A stretch of 64,000 nt of DNA from Escherichia coli (GTDB lineage Bacteria > Pseudomonadota > Gammaproteobacteria > Enterobacterales > Enterobacteriaceae). A program made the translations under genes and the position numbers. Shown one piece after another: positions 2,681-10,134 of the stretch. How positions within the stretch are numbered: the stretch's first letter is position 1; every line of letters begins with the position of its first letter. The stretch is taken from assembly GCF_024700885.2 (NCBI RefSeq), contig NZ_CP117016.1; one strand, 5' to 3'. The notes below the pieces were generated by a model. It did not search any database, was not told the origin of the DNA, and saw nothing but the letters and a program-made list of their open reading frames with translations.

Positions 2681-3265
2681 ATGAAAAGTATCCAAGACGT
2701 CCGCAGGCAAAATCTCAACGACTTGATCGACCGTGAATTCAATGGTGTTCAGACGCGGATGGCTGAAAAACTTGGAACTCAGGCAAATCTGGTAAACCGC
2801 TGGGCTCTTGGCAAGAAGGTTATCGGCGACCAGGTTGCGCGAAAAATTGAAGCTGCCGCCAATAAACCACGTAACTGGCTTGATATCGATCGCTCGCTTT
2901 CTCAGGAGGGTTTTCAGCCTGTCGGACCAAGCGACATTGGTCAGCTGGCGGCTCACAACCTGGAACGCTGGATGAGCGAAAGCCGCGACCTTTCAACACA
3001 GGGAAAACTTCACCGCGCATCCGGCGTCGCCCAAGTGACAATCAGCCGCCTGTTAAACAATGAGGTCAGCGTTTCCATTTCCACCCTGGAGAATGTTGCA
3101 TCTGCATTCGGACGTCACGGATATGAACTACTGATTCACCCGCACGACCCTGCAACTATCAACTATGACCGCTCGCGCTACGCATTGTTACCTGAAACCG
3201 AGAAAGCAAAGATCGAAAGTTACATTGAATTTGTCATCAACCAGAACGAAAAAAACAAACAATAA
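2681..3265 (+). CDS. Prophage repressor-like protein with two HTH (XRE-type) domains; no S24 peptidase domain evident
   Basis: 194 aa ORF; two segments with HTH-like pattern (MAEKLGTQANLVNRWALGKK... and ASGVAQVTISRLLNNEVSVSISTLENVASAFG); divergent from Cro-like gene; followed by terminator. Confidence 0.6.
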   Translation: MKSIQDVRRQNLNDLIDREFNGVQTRMAEKLGTQANLVNRWALGKKVIGDQVARKIEAAANKPRNWLDIDRSLSQEGFQPVGPSDIGQLAAHNLERWMSESRDLSTQGKLHRASGVAQVTISRLLNNEVSVSISTLENVASAFGRHGYELLIHPHDPATINYDRSRYALLPETEKAKIESYIEFVINQNEKNKQ

Positions 3266-3285: not shown

Positions 3286-3312
3286 AAGCCGCCAAATGGC
3301 GGCTTTTTTATT
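3286..3312 (+). terminator. Intrinsic terminator after repressor gene
   Basis: AAGCCGCC-aaat-GGCGGCTTTTTTATT. Confidence 0.6.
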
Positions 3313-3313
3313 G

Positions 3314-3390
3314 TCTATTTAATTACCTTGCAGGTAATTTTTTCAACTCATACCTATTGACATCAAACCAAATACGCATAATCATTACCT
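3314..3390 (+). promoter_or_regulatory. OL-like operator pair flanking candidate early promoter
   Basis: Perfect dyads TTACCTTGCAGGTAA (3314-3328) and TTACCTCAACGGTAA (3376-3390) bracket TTGACA (3348-3353) and a CATAAT-like -10; directly upstream of rightward early operon. Confidence 0.5.
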
Positions 3391-3418
3391 CAACGGTAAC
3401 AAGCTGAGGTAACAAGTT

Positions 3419-3571
3419 ATGCAGTGGAAAATCATCAACGGTTGGTACTGCGTTACTGCATGCGGATTCATGAGCTGGAAGTTCCGCACCTTACAGGAAG
3501 GCATTAAGTGGGCTTTCGTCAGCAAAGAAGCTCGCGATGTGGCCAACGATAACGAGATATGGGAGGGCTGA
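3419..3571 (+). CDS. Small hypothetical protein (50 aa), first ORF of early rightward operon
   Basis: ATG preceded by GAGGTAA SD; MQWKIINGWYCVTACGFMSWKFRTLQEGIKWAFVSKEARDVANDNEIWEG; not in ORF track (below length cut-off). Confidence 0.35.
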   Translation: MQWKIINGWYCVTACGFMSWKFRTLQEGIKWAFVSKEARDVANDNEIWEG

Positions 3572-3573
3572 TA

Positions 3574-3873
3574 ATGAACGTTAATCAGCAGCAAAATCTT
3601 CAAAAAATCATGCTGGCATTCGACAAGGACTACCGCCTGTCAGAACAGCTATATGACCGACAAGTTGAACTGATCGAAAGCATCCGGCTTCATCAACTAG
3701 CCTCAACTTTCGACGCTGTAACAGGTAAAGGCGTTCGCCAGGAAGTACTGGAGGCCGCTAAAGACAGTCCAGAGTTCGAAGAACTGATGGATTCCTACCG
3801 GCGCGAGGCAATGGCAATTATCGCCCGCTGGGATCTGGCTGATCAGCTTGATGGGCAGAGGGACGCGGCATGA
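3574..3873 (+). CDS. Hypothetical phage protein (99 aa)
   Basis: ATG at 3574 with GGAGGG SD 8 nt upstream (track start 3559 lacks SD); stop overlaps next gene start (ATGA). Confidence 0.55.
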   Translation: MNVNQQQNLQKIMLAFDKDYRLSEQLYDRQVELIESIRLHQLASTFDAVTGKGVRQEVLEAAKDSPEFEELMDSYRREAMAIIARWDLADQLDGQRDAA

Positions 3874-4691
3874 AGCCGGGAATTTATTTCGACATCAGCA
3901 ACGAAGACTACCACGCCGGGGACGGCGTGAGTAAGTCGCAACTGGACATGGTTGCCAAGAATCCGGCGCTTCTTAAATGGGTTCAGGCAGCACCAGAAGA
4001 CGAAGAGAAAAAGTCTGCACTGGATATGGGAACCGCATTGCACTGTCTGCTTCTGGAGCCTGGAGAATTCAACAAACGCTTCATTGTTTCACCGAAATTC
4101 GATCGTCGGACGAAACAAGGTAAAGCTGACGAAGAAGCATTTCTTCGTGATGTAGCGGATATGGGGATTACGGTACTTGATGCCGAGCAGTGGCGGAAAC
4201 TGGAGCTGATGCGTGATAGCGCAATGGCTCACCCGGCGGCACGCTGGATGCTGGAAGCACCTGGTTACTGCGAAGCATCAATGTACTGGAATGATGAAGA
4301 GACTGGTGAGTTGTGCCGCATTCGTCCAGACAAATGGCTGAACGAGCACAACGTGATCGTCGACGTGAAAAAGGTTGCAGATATGGACCGTTTTGCACGC
4401 CACATCGAGGAATTCCGCTACCACGTGCAGGACGCAATGTACCGCGAAGGAGCGATGAGGGTTACTGGTCAGTCGCATGGTTTTTTCTTTCTTGCCGTGA
4501 GCGAAAGCATTGATTGTGGTCGGTATCCGGTACGCGTGTTCGAGCTGGATGCGCCGGATGTCGATGCCGGGCACGCTCTGTTCCGCCGGGATCTGAATAC
4601 CTATCACGAATGCCGCATCAATGATGAATGGGGCGGCGTGGAAATTATTAAACGCCCTGACTGGGCACGTAAACAGGATATGTACGTATGA
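3870..4691 (+). CDS. PD-(D/E)XK-family phage exonuclease-like protein
   Basis: 273 aa; D...IVDVKK-type nuclease motif; translationally coupled to flanking genes. Confidence 0.6.
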   Translation: MKPGIYFDISNEDYHAGDGVSKSQLDMVAKNPALLKWVQAAPEDEEKKSALDMGTALHCLLLEPGEFNKRFIVSPKFDRRTKQGKADEEAFLRDVADMGITVLDAEQWRKLELMRDSAMAHPAARWMLEAPGYCEASMYWNDEETGELCRIRPDKWLNEHNVIVDVKKVADMDRFARHIEEFRYHVQDAMYREGAMRVTGQSHGFFFLAVSESIDCGRYPVRVFELDAPDVDAGHALFRRDLNTYHECRINDEWGGVEIIKRPDWARKQDMYV

Positions 4692-5569
4692 GCAATGATA
4701 TCGCAATCACATCACAACCAGGCGCAACTGTAGGTACTGCTGCGGCAATCTTCAGCCCGGAGGGCATGAATCAACTGGTGCGTTTCGCGGAGTTGATGTC
4801 ACAAAGCAAAGCGACTGTACCGAAACATCTTGAAGGCAAACCTGCCGATTGTCTGGCGGTGACCATGCAGGCGGCACAGTGGGGAATGAACCCTTTCGCC
4901 GTGGCGCAGAAAACGCATGTGGTAAACGGAACGTTAGGCTACGAAGCACAGTTGGTAAACGCGGTCGTATCCTCTTCCAGCCTGCTAGCGACACGCCTGA
5001 ATTATCGCTGGAGCGGTGACTGGTCGAATGTTAACGGCAAAACAGATAAATCACCGAATCTGACGGTAACTGTGTCAGCAGTTCTTAAAGGAGAAGCAGA
5101 ACCCCGTGAGCTTACCATCAGTATGGCGCAAGCCGGAGTGCGTAACTCTCCATTGTGGGAACAGGATCCGCGCCAGCAGCTTGCCTATCTTTGCACGAAA
5201 CGATGGGCTCGCCTGCACGCTCCTGATGTACTTCTCGGTGTTTACACCCCTGACGAATTACAGGAAACGGCACCGCGCGTTGAGCGAGACATTACTCCGC
5301 AAACGACTACTGCTGCGGGAATGAACAGTCTGATCAACGCTAAACCAGTGAAAAAGCCTGATGAGCAAACGCGTAAAGCGGATAGCCGTGATCCAGAAGA
5401 AATGCTGATGGCCTTTACCAGCGCAGCGATGAATTACAGCACTGTCTCCGAACTGGATAAGGCTTACAAATACATTGCACAAAAACTTTCAGATGATGAC
5501 GAACTGCTGGCAAAAGCCACCGACGTTTACAGCGTTCGTCGGGAAGAATTAAACGAAACATCTATGTAA
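4688..5569 (+). CDS. Putative single-strand annealing recombination protein (RecT/Bet-like); family assignment tentative
   Basis: 293 aa ORF start-stop overlapping the exonuclease gene (ATGA), the typical exo/SSAP arrangement. Confidence 0.4.
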   Translation: MSNDIAITSQPGATVGTAAAIFSPEGMNQLVRFAELMSQSKATVPKHLEGKPADCLAVTMQAAQWGMNPFAVAQKTHVVNGTLGYEAQLVNAVVSSSSLLATRLNYRWSGDWSNVNGKTDKSPNLTVTVSAVLKGEAEPRELTISMAQAGVRNSPLWEQDPRQQLAYLCTKRWARLHAPDVLLGVYTPDELQETAPRVERDITPQTTTAAGMNSLINAKPVKKPDEQTRKADSRDPEEMLMAFTSAAMNYSTVSELDKAYKYIAQKLSDDDELLAKATDVYSVRREELNETSM

Positions 5570-5618: not shown

Positions 5619-5867
5619 ATGAAAGGTGCATTAGGTAAGAAGGAACTCCTGGCGGTGGTGCCACTGTCATGGAGCACTATCGACCGTATGGAGCGCGCAG
5701 GGGAATTTCCTAAACGCTGGTATATCACCGATAAACGCTGCGCATGGAACCGTGATGAAGTTGAGCGTTGGCTTGATGAACGTCAGGCAGCAAGCCCGGC
5801 AGAGTTCCAGGGTAAAAAACCTCCTGTTCAGCAACGTGTATATCGTCCTGTGAGCAACGCGGCATGA
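5619..5867 (+). CDS. AlpA-family phage transcriptional regulator / excisionase-like protein
   Basis: 82 aa; pattern LSWSTIDRMERAGEFPKRWYI...WNRDEVERWL typical of AlpA-type HTH; AGAGAGG SD. Confidence 0.7.
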   Translation: MKGALGKKELLAVVPLSWSTIDRMERAGEFPKRWYITDKRCAWNRDEVERWLDERQAASPAEFQGKKPPVQQRVYRPVSNAA

Positions 5868-5976
5868 GTGTGCTGCTAAGGCACTGGAGCAAATGGTCAG
5901 GATGGTACTTATTCCTGGCCTCTGTTTCAGCATGGCTTTATCTGCTGGCATTAATTTTCAGAGAGGGTTGGATTAA

Positions 5977-6276
5977 GTGAGAAAGTTAAGCCGACTTGAA
6001 AAATATCACATGAACAAGGTTTCAATGCGCAGCCCTTCAAAGGTTGTTGCCGTTACTCCTGCGGCGATAGAGATCGAAAAACGCGCGATTGAAAGAGAGA
6101 AAAAAGGGCAGTTCCGCATTGCCGCCCACCTTTGGCTTCAGTGTATGGATGTTGCTTCTGGTGATGTTGAACGTGCAAGGATCGCGGTTCGCAGGGACCA
6201 ATGTATCACAAAAGGTAACGGCCTTCGCCGTGGCGACTATAGCGGCATAGGATGTTGTGGGGTGGTTTATGACTAA
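5977..6276 (+). CDS. PerC-like small regulator (putative); GTG start
   Basis: 99 aa; RIAAHLWLQCMDV...DVERARIAVRRDQCI resembles PerC-family pattern; GAGGGT SD before GTG 5977. Confidence 0.4.
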   Translation: MRKLSRLEKYHMNKVSMRSPSKVVAVTPAAIEIEKRAIEREKKGQFRIAAHLWLQCMDVASGDVERARIAVRRDQCITKGNGLRRGDYSGIGCCGVVYD

Positions 6277-8392: not shown

Positions 8393-8428
8393 GACGGTAT
8401 GAGAGTATACCTTTAAGGTAATACCGTC
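8393..8428. promoter_or_regulatory. Nested palindrome upstream of integrase start (candidate int operator or att-arm site)
   Basis: GACGGTAT...ATACCGTC outer inverted repeat enclosing TACCTTTAAGGTA, a near-copy of the TTACC-N5-GGTAA motif. Confidence 0.35.
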
Positions 8429-8510: not shown

Positions 8511-8556
8511 GAGTTGGCATCTGAATAGGAATGATTTGCTATGAGTTAGCTGTTAA

Positions 8557-10134
8557 TCATTCCCACTCAATGGTAGCTGGCGGCTTGCCGCTGATGTCAT
8601 ACACCACGCGGGAAATACCGTTCACTTCATTGATAATGCGGTTGGAAACGCGACCGAGGAAATCGTACGGCAGATGCGCCCAGTGTGCGGTCATAAAGTC
8701 GATGGTTTCGACAGCACGCAGAGAAACAACCCAGTCATACTTACGACCATCGCCCATTACACCAACGGAACGTACCGGCAGGAAGACGGTGAACGCCTGG
8801 CTGACTTTGTCGTACAGGTCCGCTTTACGCAGTTCTTCAATAAAGATGGCGTCAGCACGGCGCAGCAGGTCGCAGTACTCTTTCTTCACTTCGCCCAGTA
8901 CACGAACGCCGAGGCCTGGTCCCGGGAACGGGTGACGGTACAGCATGTCGTACGGCAGGCCCAGCTCCAGACCAATCTTACGCACTTCGTCTTTGAACAG
9001 CTCTTTCAGCGGTTCAACCAGCCCCATCTTCATCTCTTTCGGCAGGCCGCCCACGTTGTGGTGAGATTTGATGACGTGTGCTTTACCGGTTGCAGACGCC
9101 GCAGATTCGATAACGTCAGGGTAGATAGTACCCTGCGCCAGCCACTTCACGTCTTCCAGTTTCAGCGCTTCTTCATCGAATACTTCAACGAAAACGCGCC
9201 CGATGATTTTACGTTTTGCTTCCGGATCGTTTTCGCCGGCCAACGCTGACAGGAAGCGATCTTCTGCCGGAACGTGAACAATGTTCAGACCAAAGTGATC
9301 GCCAAACATATCCAGAACCTGCTCTGCTTCGTTGAGACGCAGCAGGCCGTTGTCGACGAATACGCAAGTCAGGTTTTTACCGATAGCGCGGTGCAGCAGC
9401 ATTGCGGTTACGGAGGAATCCACACCACCAGAGAGGCCGAGGATGACTTTATCGTCGCCTACCTGCTCGCGGATGCGAGCTACAGCATCGTCGATAATTT
9501 TCGCTGGCGTCCACAGGGCTTCACACTGGCAGATATCTCGCACAAAGCGCTCCAGCATGCGCATACCCTGGCGGGTGTGAGTCACTTCCGGGTGGAACTG
9601 TACGCCATAGAAGCGTTTTTCTTCGTTAGCCATAATGGCAAACGGGCAGCTTTCGGTGCTGGCTACGGTGACGAAGTCGGACGGGATAGCGGTAACTTTA
9701 TCGCCGTGGCTCATCCAGACATCGAGCAGAGGTTTACCGTCTGCGGTCAGAGCATCTTCAATACCGCGAACCAGTGCGCTGTCGTTTACGACTTCAACCT
9801 GCGCGTAGCCAAATTCACGTTCGTTAGAGGCTTCAACGTGACCGCCCAACTGCATTGCCATGGTCTGCATGCCATAGCAAACGCCGAATACCGGTACGCC
9901 TGCTTCAAAAACATACTGCGGCGCACGCGGGCTGTTTTCTTCGGTGGTGCTTTCCGGGCCGCCGGAAAGAATAATGCCGCTTGGGTTGAAGTCACGAATT
10001 TGTGCTTCTGTCACATCCCACGCCCACAGTTCGCAGTAAACGCCCAGCTCACGCACGCGGCGCGCAACCAGTTGAGTATACTGGGAACCGAAGTCCAGAA
10101 TGAGGATGCGATGCTTATGAATGTTTTCCGTCAT
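8557..10134 (-). CDS. guaA: GMP synthase (glutamine-hydrolysing)
   Basis: 525 aa; C-terminus ...PPATIEWE; GATase and ATP-PPase motifs (SGGVDSS). Confidence 0.97.

Follow-up and report, generated by a model that had tools for sequence, protein, structure and literature searches.

Which functions does a prophage place first in the operon that is transcribed when repression is lifted? The question arises at a pair of small open reading frames (ORFs) in a 64,000-nucleotide stretch of Escherichia coli DNA (RefSeq assembly GCF_024700885.2, contig NZ_CP117016.1), referred to below as the window. The first ~8.5 kb of the window are the early/immunity arm of a prophage of the phiV10/epsilon15 type (genus Uetakevirus), inserted at the 3' end of guaA. 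On the plus strand, between the repressor gene and the genes for a RecE-like exonuclease and a RecT protein, lie ORF1 (3419-3571, 50 amino acids) and ORF2 (3574-3873, 99 amino acids). Judged by sequence comparison, both are real, conserved genes under purifying selection. ORF2 is very probably a divergent, hitherto unrecognised homologue of lambda Gam, in fold as well as in ancestry; that it functions by inhibiting RecBCD is likely, at a lower level of confidence. ORF1 is a separate module, which belongs with the epsilon15-type repressor and early promoter and not with the recombination (Rec) module.

ORF2 and lambda Gam

Lambda Gam is the standard RecBCD inhibitor in recombineering, and several defence systems are known to be triggered by it or to be directed against it; it lowers the ciprofloxacin MIC about four-fold (PMC5218532). 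ORF2 encodes an acidic protein (isoelectric point 4.6, net charge -7) of the family phrog_856, and is the ortholog of phiV10 p38, which is noted in the phiV10 record as similar to epsilon15 gp36. The predicted structure of ORF2 matches the three-dimensional fold of GamS, a host-nuclease inhibitor. Gene position had suggested the Gam hypothesis before there was a structure result, which therefore counts as independent confirmation and not as a post hoc choice.

Three weak sequence signals also lead to Gam, all in the same register. The family is a narrow one: an exhaustive search of 1.84 billion representatives by profile, with the ORF2 alignment as query, gave 32 clusters, all of the same family, about 97-102 amino acids long and with identity down to 29%. 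When the family profile was compared with 177,635 PDB sequences, Gam (5mbv, 2uuz) came top at a weak E-value of 0.076 with a diversified alignment (residues 30-87 to 32-90) and of 0.1 in another run. The distant family member P0117 matches the Pfam Gam family PF06064 with an E-value of 0.004 and 17.7 bits (residues 31-94 to profile positions 33-96 of 98). Alignment of the ORF2 family to a small Gam alignment with hhalign gave a probability of 72-78% and an E-value of 2-3e-5 over 55-56 columns (32-87 to 34-90), with the common motifs G..., D-x-x-E-F-x-E and I-A. Length and charge are alike as well: the ORF2 family has 97-102 residues and a net charge of -4 to -9, GamS 98 residues and -10, and GamL 93-94 residues and -7 to -10.

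Genomic context was counted over the 92 loci where an ORF2 homologue is followed by a sufficient length of DNA. The gene that comes next encodes a DUF3799/RecE-like exonuclease at 68 of them and a YqaJ/lambda-Exo-like exonuclease at 21, followed by RecT, with zero gap in these 89 of the 92; at one further locus RecT comes directly after the ORF2 homologue. The YqaJ type replaces the DUF3799 type in about a quarter of the close relatives, behind a nearly identical ORF2. Near-identical ORF2 copies in front of different nucleases speak for a role directed at the host and against one tied to a particular nuclease. A lambdoid prophage with an S24-type CI (L083) carries a 37%-identical homologue in the order CI-...-KilR-ORF2 homologue-exo-RecT, which mirrors lambda kil-gam-bet-exo. 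A Hafnia relative whose Rep-ORF1 backbone is the same has, at the ORF2 slot, a phi80-type GamL (PF28165; phrog_1050, 'gam-like host nuclease inhibitor'), and phiV10 has no other annotated anti-RecBCD gene. ORF2 homologues accompany the exonuclease and RecT genes into phages with other repressors and upstream genes, and 'first gene of the recombination module' suits ORF2 better than 'generic early gene'.

Two observations concern the surroundings of this slot. An optional gene of 319-360 amino acids, phrog_1376, lies between ORF1 and the Gam-like gene in four loci (L187 3648-4607, from enteropathogenic E. coli (EPEC) E2348/69; L170 4119-5201; L172 3249-4229; L084 264-1244), and its site has the look of a slot for cargo or accessory genes. 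The pre-exonuclease slot of Hafnia and Dickeya relatives holds proteins of 94 amino acids (L171 4150-4434, abutting the exonuclease gene) and 100 amino acids (L170 5213-5515, ~160 nt upstream). Neither of the two proteins matches a PHROG or Pfam family or clearly resembles ORF2, Gam or GamL; they may be further Gam-slot types.

A course of events that fits these data can be proposed. Once the repressor is released from its operators, transcription from the PL-like promoter at 3357-3385 would cover ORF1, ORF2, the RecE-like exonuclease gene and RecT, and ORF2, an acidic helical protein of ~99 residues, would serve as the anti-RecBCD part of a Rec module of three genes. By analogy with Gam, which as a homodimer binds RecBCD and inhibits both its nuclease and its helicase activity, the protein would dimerise, target RecBCD and inhibit it. 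The preliminary description of the window, made from the sequence alone, had taken the position of the two ORFs as a hint of action on host processes, recombination control among them; if the analogy holds, the hint was correct for ORF2.

Several results weigh against this assignment. ORF2 has no match to PF06064 at E <= 10, and neither it nor ORF1 has any match in scans of Pfam, NCBIfam, PADLOC and PDB sequences. The best score of the family to PF06064, that of P0117, lies under the 25-bit curated cut-off. Only the C-terminal two-thirds of ORF2 are similar to Gam in sequence; the N-terminal motif of Gam and GamL, MNAY..DR(I/L)E..W, is absent, and the N-terminus of ORF2 is MNVNQQQNLQKIMLAFDKDY. 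Nothing detectable connects ORF2 with GamL (hhalign probability 0.4%), and ORF2 matches phrog_856 only, not phrog_1050. Foldseek against BFVD gave two good unnamed matches and no named Gam. An HHpred-assisted re-annotation of epsilon15 left gp36 without assignment, and literature searches with accession numbers and for Gam in Uetakevirus returned no biochemical or genetic data on the ORF2 family. Chi sites also count on this side. There are 8 in phiV10 (6746-27791, L183) and 9 in HEMP4, in each genome confined to a single strand, where an order-3 Markov model expects ~3.4-4; the corresponding counts for the two strands are 4/0 in the Salmonella relative and 2/0 in the Klebsiella relative. Table 1 of a survey of lambdoid phages indicates that phages rich in co-oriented Chi sites tend to lack an anti-RecBCD gene (PMC12315714). 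By that rule, 8-9 co-oriented sites are unusual in a phage that carries a Rec module, although the signal is moderate, comes partly from oligonucleotide usage and is weaker in the Salmonella and Klebsiella relatives.

Other relationships of ORF2 were tried. A pairwise BLASTP comparison with lambda Gam gave a short match that is out of register and is regarded as spurious. ORF2 as the N-terminal part of a long RecE was rejected for lack of any match to phrog_412 or phrog_607, and comparison with the P22 Abc2 family gave no sequence match.

The N-terminal region deserves separate treatment. In the structure of RecBCD bound to GamS, one monomer has its N-terminal helix lodged as a plug in the RecB channel for single-stranded DNA, and acidic side chains mimic duplex phosphates (PMC5218532). 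The conserved N-terminal residues of the ORF2 family are L9, K11, M13, F16, D19/Y20, R29 and E32, and the helix is rich in hydrophobic and aromatic residues (L9, M13, F16, Y20). This helix could play the same steric role as the plug helix of GamS. In the 2025 survey of lambdoid Rec modules, the anti-RecBCD types listed are four, Gam, GamL, Abc2 and MuGam, and the ORF2 family is not among these four; Gam and GamL are described there as different in sequence and predicted to have a common fold, and GamL as reported to block RecBCD (PMC12315714, citing Rotman et al. 2012). In our comparisons, Gam and GamL have only their N-terminal ~28 residues in common (MNAY..DR(I/L)E..W; hhalign probability 94%), and the ORF2 family and Gam only their C-terminal ~55 residues, from about residue 30. 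To judge by sequence, ORF2 thus appears to keep the part of Gam that GamL is without, and to be without the motif located in the RecB-plugging part of Gam.

The same data can be read in other ways. ORF2 might have the Gam fold and do another job, modulating RecBCD as P22 Abc2 does, or binding SbcCD or a DNA-binding defence effector through its own N-terminal helix. Its N-terminal third is unrelated to the Gam/GamL motif yet conserved within the family, and the 8-9 co-oriented Chi sites in the E. coli members fit if RecBCD-Chi function is not abolished, given the correlation in Table 1 of PMC12315714. We hold this to be possible but doubtful: the conserved acidic D-x-x-EF-x-E region aligns with Gam, GamL occupies the ORF2 slot in a close backbone, and the Chi excess is partly oligonucleotide usage and absent in the Klebsiella relative. 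It is quite unlikely that ORF2 is instead an accessory subunit of the phage recombinase, comparable to P22 Arf/Abc1 or the Burkholderia RecET 'h' proteins, and not an inhibitor of a host enzyme. The overlap of its stop codon with the exonuclease start and its constant place next to recombinase genes are what such a subunit might show, and uncharacterised small proteins of Burkholderia RecET-like operons boost recombineering efficiency in the native host (PMC8313284). However, ORF2 at ~95% identity precedes two exonuclease families and once stands directly before RecT, which argues against a specific partner, and its fold match is to a host-nuclease inhibitor.

Homology to Gam, with RecBCD inhibition as the likely function, is therefore the reading that we carry forward. 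A bolder form of it, which we offer tentatively and consider rather improbable, makes phrog_856 a third, unrecognised sequence type of Gam-fold anti-nuclease. It would combine the C-terminal acidic domain of Gam with a different N-terminal helix, interact in its own manner with RecBCD or with some other end-processing or defence complex, and might leave Chi-dependent RecBCD functions usable. Such a property could be why a Rec module and 8-9 co-oriented Chi sites occur together in the E. coli members.

If ORF2 is Gam-like, it supplies the missing third component of the RecET-type modules in these phages and is a candidate for improving RecET recombineering. It would also be a natural variant for finding the parts of Gam that are needed for RecBCD binding; its use for dissecting Gam follows from the N-terminal helix that Gam has in common with GamL and the C-terminal domain that it has in common with the ORF2 family. 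The finding amounts to an annotation correction and a testable hypothesis, not to a new kind of system.

Two conserved genes and the place of ORF1

ORF1 extends from the ATG at 3419 to the TGA at 3571, with GAGGT at 3407-3411, 7 nt before the start. ORF2 extends from the ATG at 3574 to the TGA at 3873, with GGAGGG at 3561-3566, likewise 7 nt before the start, and its stop codon overlaps the ATG of the exonuclease gene (GCATGA, 3870-3873). An in-frame ATG at 3559, which would give a protein of 104 amino acids, was considered as an alternative start of ORF2 and rejected: it falls within the Shine-Dalgarno sequence, and homologues begin MN(V/I), which makes 3574 the true start. The two ORFs are annotated in RefSeq as coding sequences of E. 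coli MLI114 (WP_001198620.1 and WP_001375986.1) and have the phiV10 orthologs p39 (noted there as similar to epsilon15 gp37) and p38.

Conservation was examined in 67 distinct related sequences, in which neither ORF has an indel. Variable columns fall mostly at third codon positions, with counts at positions 1/2/3 of 4/3/11 for ORF1 and 6/5/33 for ORF2. Across genera, the ratio of nonsynonymous to synonymous differences per site (pN/pS) takes the values 0.39 (ORF1) and 0.54 (ORF2), and synonymous sites are close to saturated. Both proteins match PHROG families over their full length, ORF1 phrog_898 (E 1.9e-38, 1-50/50) and ORF2 phrog_856 (E 6.5e-55, 1-99/99); both families are classed as function-unknown, and database names for the two proteins are 'hypothetical' everywhere. 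Word-indexed homologue searches with either ORF found close Enterobacterales relatives only. In the phage collection, searches with ORF1 and with ORF2 found 36 records apiece, identically distributed over host genera and with Enterobacter phage Tyrion among them; the records that match ORF2 are all phiV10/epsilon15-like, and ORF2 is present in 558 of 5,426 complete E. coli genomes (~10%). The boundaries of both ORFs and the strong Shine-Dalgarno sequence of ORF1 given in the preliminary description are thereby borne out. Its statement that neither could be assigned to a family is not, as both belong to established phage families.

It remains extremely improbable that one or both ORFs are chance frames, or that the real gene is an antisense ORF of 72 amino acids at 3385-3603. 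ORF1 is very short, the Tyrion record calls an opposite-strand coding sequence across the ORF1 region, and the antisense frame and ORF1 have common third codon positions, so codon-position statistics cannot discriminate between them. Yet ORF1 is intact, from the same ATG and with 47-50 amino acids, in nine loci of five or more genera, and the antisense frame is interrupted by internal stops in Hafnia-type loci. Both ORFs have a good Shine-Dalgarno sequence, fit the orientation of the operon and match their PHROG families at full length, and the ORF2 structure model has a predicted local distance difference test score (pLDDT) of 93.

In Tyrion itself (L181 2347-2490), an ORF1 homologue of 85% identity is present and unannotated, and the opposite-strand coding sequence gp39 is called over the same DNA. 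We consider gp39 probably a mis-annotation.

ORF1 (plus strand; phrog_898) is predicted to be a mini-protein of beta-beta-beta-alpha topology, with a long amphipathic helix over residues 25-46 in the model. Homologues of 47-54 amino acids occur in Escherichia, Salmonella, Klebsiella, Raoultella, Enterobacter, Kluyvera, Hafnia and Dickeya. Hardly any variation is seen in the N-terminal 24 residues, MQWKIINGWYCVTACGLMSWKF (pN/pS 0.27, pS 0.60). Because synonymous sites there are saturated, it is the protein that is constrained. The possibility that this conservation comes from an overlapping RNA or DNA element was rejected, synonymous divergence being as elsewhere at that pS, and an Rfam search gave sub-threshold matches only, on the terminator upstream.

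The position of ORF1 follows the repressor. It is the first gene after an epsilon15-type repressor with two helix-turn-helix (HTH) domains in Dickeya, Hafnia, Klebsiella and EPEC E2348/69, including loci where another gene has taken the place of ORF2 or phrog_1376 is inserted, and it is absent from the lambdoid locus that carries an ORF2 homologue. The label of unknown function, given to both ORFs in the preliminary description, still stands for ORF1, which has no assignment; for ORF2 it gives way, in part, to the remote and convergent homology to Gam. ORF1 is a well-conserved protein at the very start of the derepressed operon, and would most likely bind some host or phage protein right after derepression.

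Lambda Kil, an inhibitor of FtsZ, and CIII, an inhibitor of FtsH, are small peptides expressed from PL. That ORF1 is their functional counterpart, a host-directed peptide made at derepression, is unlikely on present evidence. It sits directly upstream of a Gam-like gene, where a kil gene sits in lambda, ArgO145, KO-TP1 and the lambdoid locus L083, its N-terminal 24 residues are under strong constraint at the protein level, and the model has the long amphipathic helix. Set against this, hhalign gave probabilities of 0.08% and 0.19% for ORF1 with lambda Kil and the KilR type, there is no Pfam match, and ORF1 tracks the epsilon15-type repressor and not the Rec module, which makes a role in the immunity circuit equally possible. 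A host role like that of Kil or CIII and a role in the repressor circuit are both guesses.

Regulatory sites and prophage setting

The preliminary description had the two ORFs as the first cistrons downstream of a repressor-controlled, PL-like promoter, and this holds, with the promoter identified by its consensus. A sigma-70-type sequence at 3357-3385 on the plus strand (TTGACA-17-AATCAT) has 10/12 consensus matches and is, on this consensus evidence, a plausible PL-like promoter of the ORF1/ORF2 operon. Operator-like palindromes, both exact copies of TTACC-N5-GGTAA, flank it: TTACCTTGCAGGTAA at 3323-3337 lies upstream of the -35 hexamer, and TTACCTCAACGGTAA at 3385-3399 abuts the -10 hexamer and the likely transcription start. 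A hairpin resembling an intrinsic terminator (3286-3305, plus strand), with an 8-bp stem including 6 G-C pairs and then a T run, ends the repressor transcript; the phiV10 terminator is annotated in the same place. The spacer upstream of ORF1 has 32% variable columns among the 67 related sequences, far above the variability of ORF1 and ORF2.

TTACC-N5-GGTAA has five exact copies in the window, all within regulatory spacers of the prophage, and the epsilon15 RefSeq record annotates three repressor-binding sites in the equivalent spacer. The three other exact copies are at 218-232, 280-294 and 2611-2625, and one-mismatch copies are at 2563-2577 and 8407-8421. One exact palindrome is in the divergent promoter region between the repressor and Cro-like genes, and a one-mismatch copy lies directly upstream of the integrase gene. 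The palindromes at 218-232 and 280-294 sit between the lambda-P-like gene and a DUF1064 gene, a pattern that suggests a third repressor-controlled region.

Over the segment 3280-3900, identity is 100% with E. coli MLI114 and 94-95% with phages phiV10, TL-2011b, ZX5 and others. A 17-bp att core has been published for the phiV10/epsilon15/ZX5 phage group (PMC9782041); this core, ATTGAGTGGGAATGATT, was found once as an exact copy, at 8555-8571 in the 3' end of guaA, and marks the prophage boundary. The second prophage end lies beyond the window. From window coordinate 1, the minus strand encodes a lambda-P-like protein, a DnaT-like replication initiator, a Zn-finger protein and a Cro-like protein. 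The plus strand begins with the repressor (2681-3265), a protein of 194 amino acids with two HTH domains of the epsilon15/SPC32H Rep type (Pfam HTH_3 and related; ortholog of phiV10 p40 and epsilon15 gp38), which is followed by ORF1 and ORF2. Next come the RecE-like PD-(D/E)XK exonuclease (3870-4691, plus strand; Pfam DUF3799, E 3e-22; phrog_412, exonuclease VIII) and the RecT-family single-strand annealing protein (4688-5569, plus strand; Pfam RecT, E 1e-31). After RecT come an AlpA/Xis-like protein, a PerC-like protein, an MT-A70 methylase and a DUF1382 protein, and then the integrase on the minus strand.

Three further features of this arm were recorded. The exonuclease and RecT are fused in the phiV10 record as the 586-amino-acid p37 (L002 5591-7351), and are two overlapping genes in the window prophage (3870-4691 and 4688-5569). 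Iteron-like tandem repeats lie in the gene of the DnaT-like initiator at 1493-1631 (24-bp x2.6 at 100% identity, 18-bp x3.1 and 12-bp x2.4) and are probably the phage replication origin. A hydrophobic ORF of 38 amino acids (5864-5980) is found at the slot of the phiV10 small membrane protein p35, with the PerC-family activator gene (5977-6276) directly downstream; both are in the early operon.

Comparison with known systems

ORF1 was compared with lambda Kil, Rac KilR and lambda CIII, which like ORF1 are very small; they are expressed early from PL and are encoded just upstream of a Gam-type gene in lambdoid phages. They differ from it in that no sequence or profile similarity was found between them and ORF1, and that ORF1 has a predicted beta-beta-beta-alpha structure and is linked to the repressor.

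For ORF2, P22 Abc2 and T7 gp5.9 are comparable as small early proteins directed at RecBCD, and Abc2, of ~97 amino acids, is also part of a Rec module. Their folds and mechanisms are unrelated, however: Abc2 binds RecC, gp5.9 is a different DNA mimic, and no sequence or fold match to ORF2 was found. The phi80-type GamL is closer. It is small and acidic (93-94 amino acids) and occupies the identical slot before the exonuclease and RecT genes, including in the Hafnia Rep-ORF1 backbone, whereas the N-terminal helix is common to GamL and Gam and the C-terminal domain to ORF2 and Gam.

Lambda Gam itself (GamS; PF06064; 2UUZ, 5MBV) differs from ORF2 in several respects. Identity is ~18-29%, over the C-terminal two-thirds, with ORF2 under the Pfam threshold, and the N-terminal helix of ORF2 is without MNAY..DR(I/L)E..W. 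The partners of ORF2 are a RecE-like or YqaJ exonuclease and RecT, those of Gam are Exo and Bet, and ORF2 is carried by epsilon15-type podoviruses, with RecBCD binding predicted by analogy. In other respects the two agree. They have almost the same length (99 and 98 amino acids) and are both acidic, and a weak colinear similarity, which includes D-x-x-EF-x-E, runs over residues 30-90. Each lies directly upstream of an exonuclease/annealing pair in a repressor-controlled leftward operon, in the lambdoid relative of ORF2 after a kil gene.
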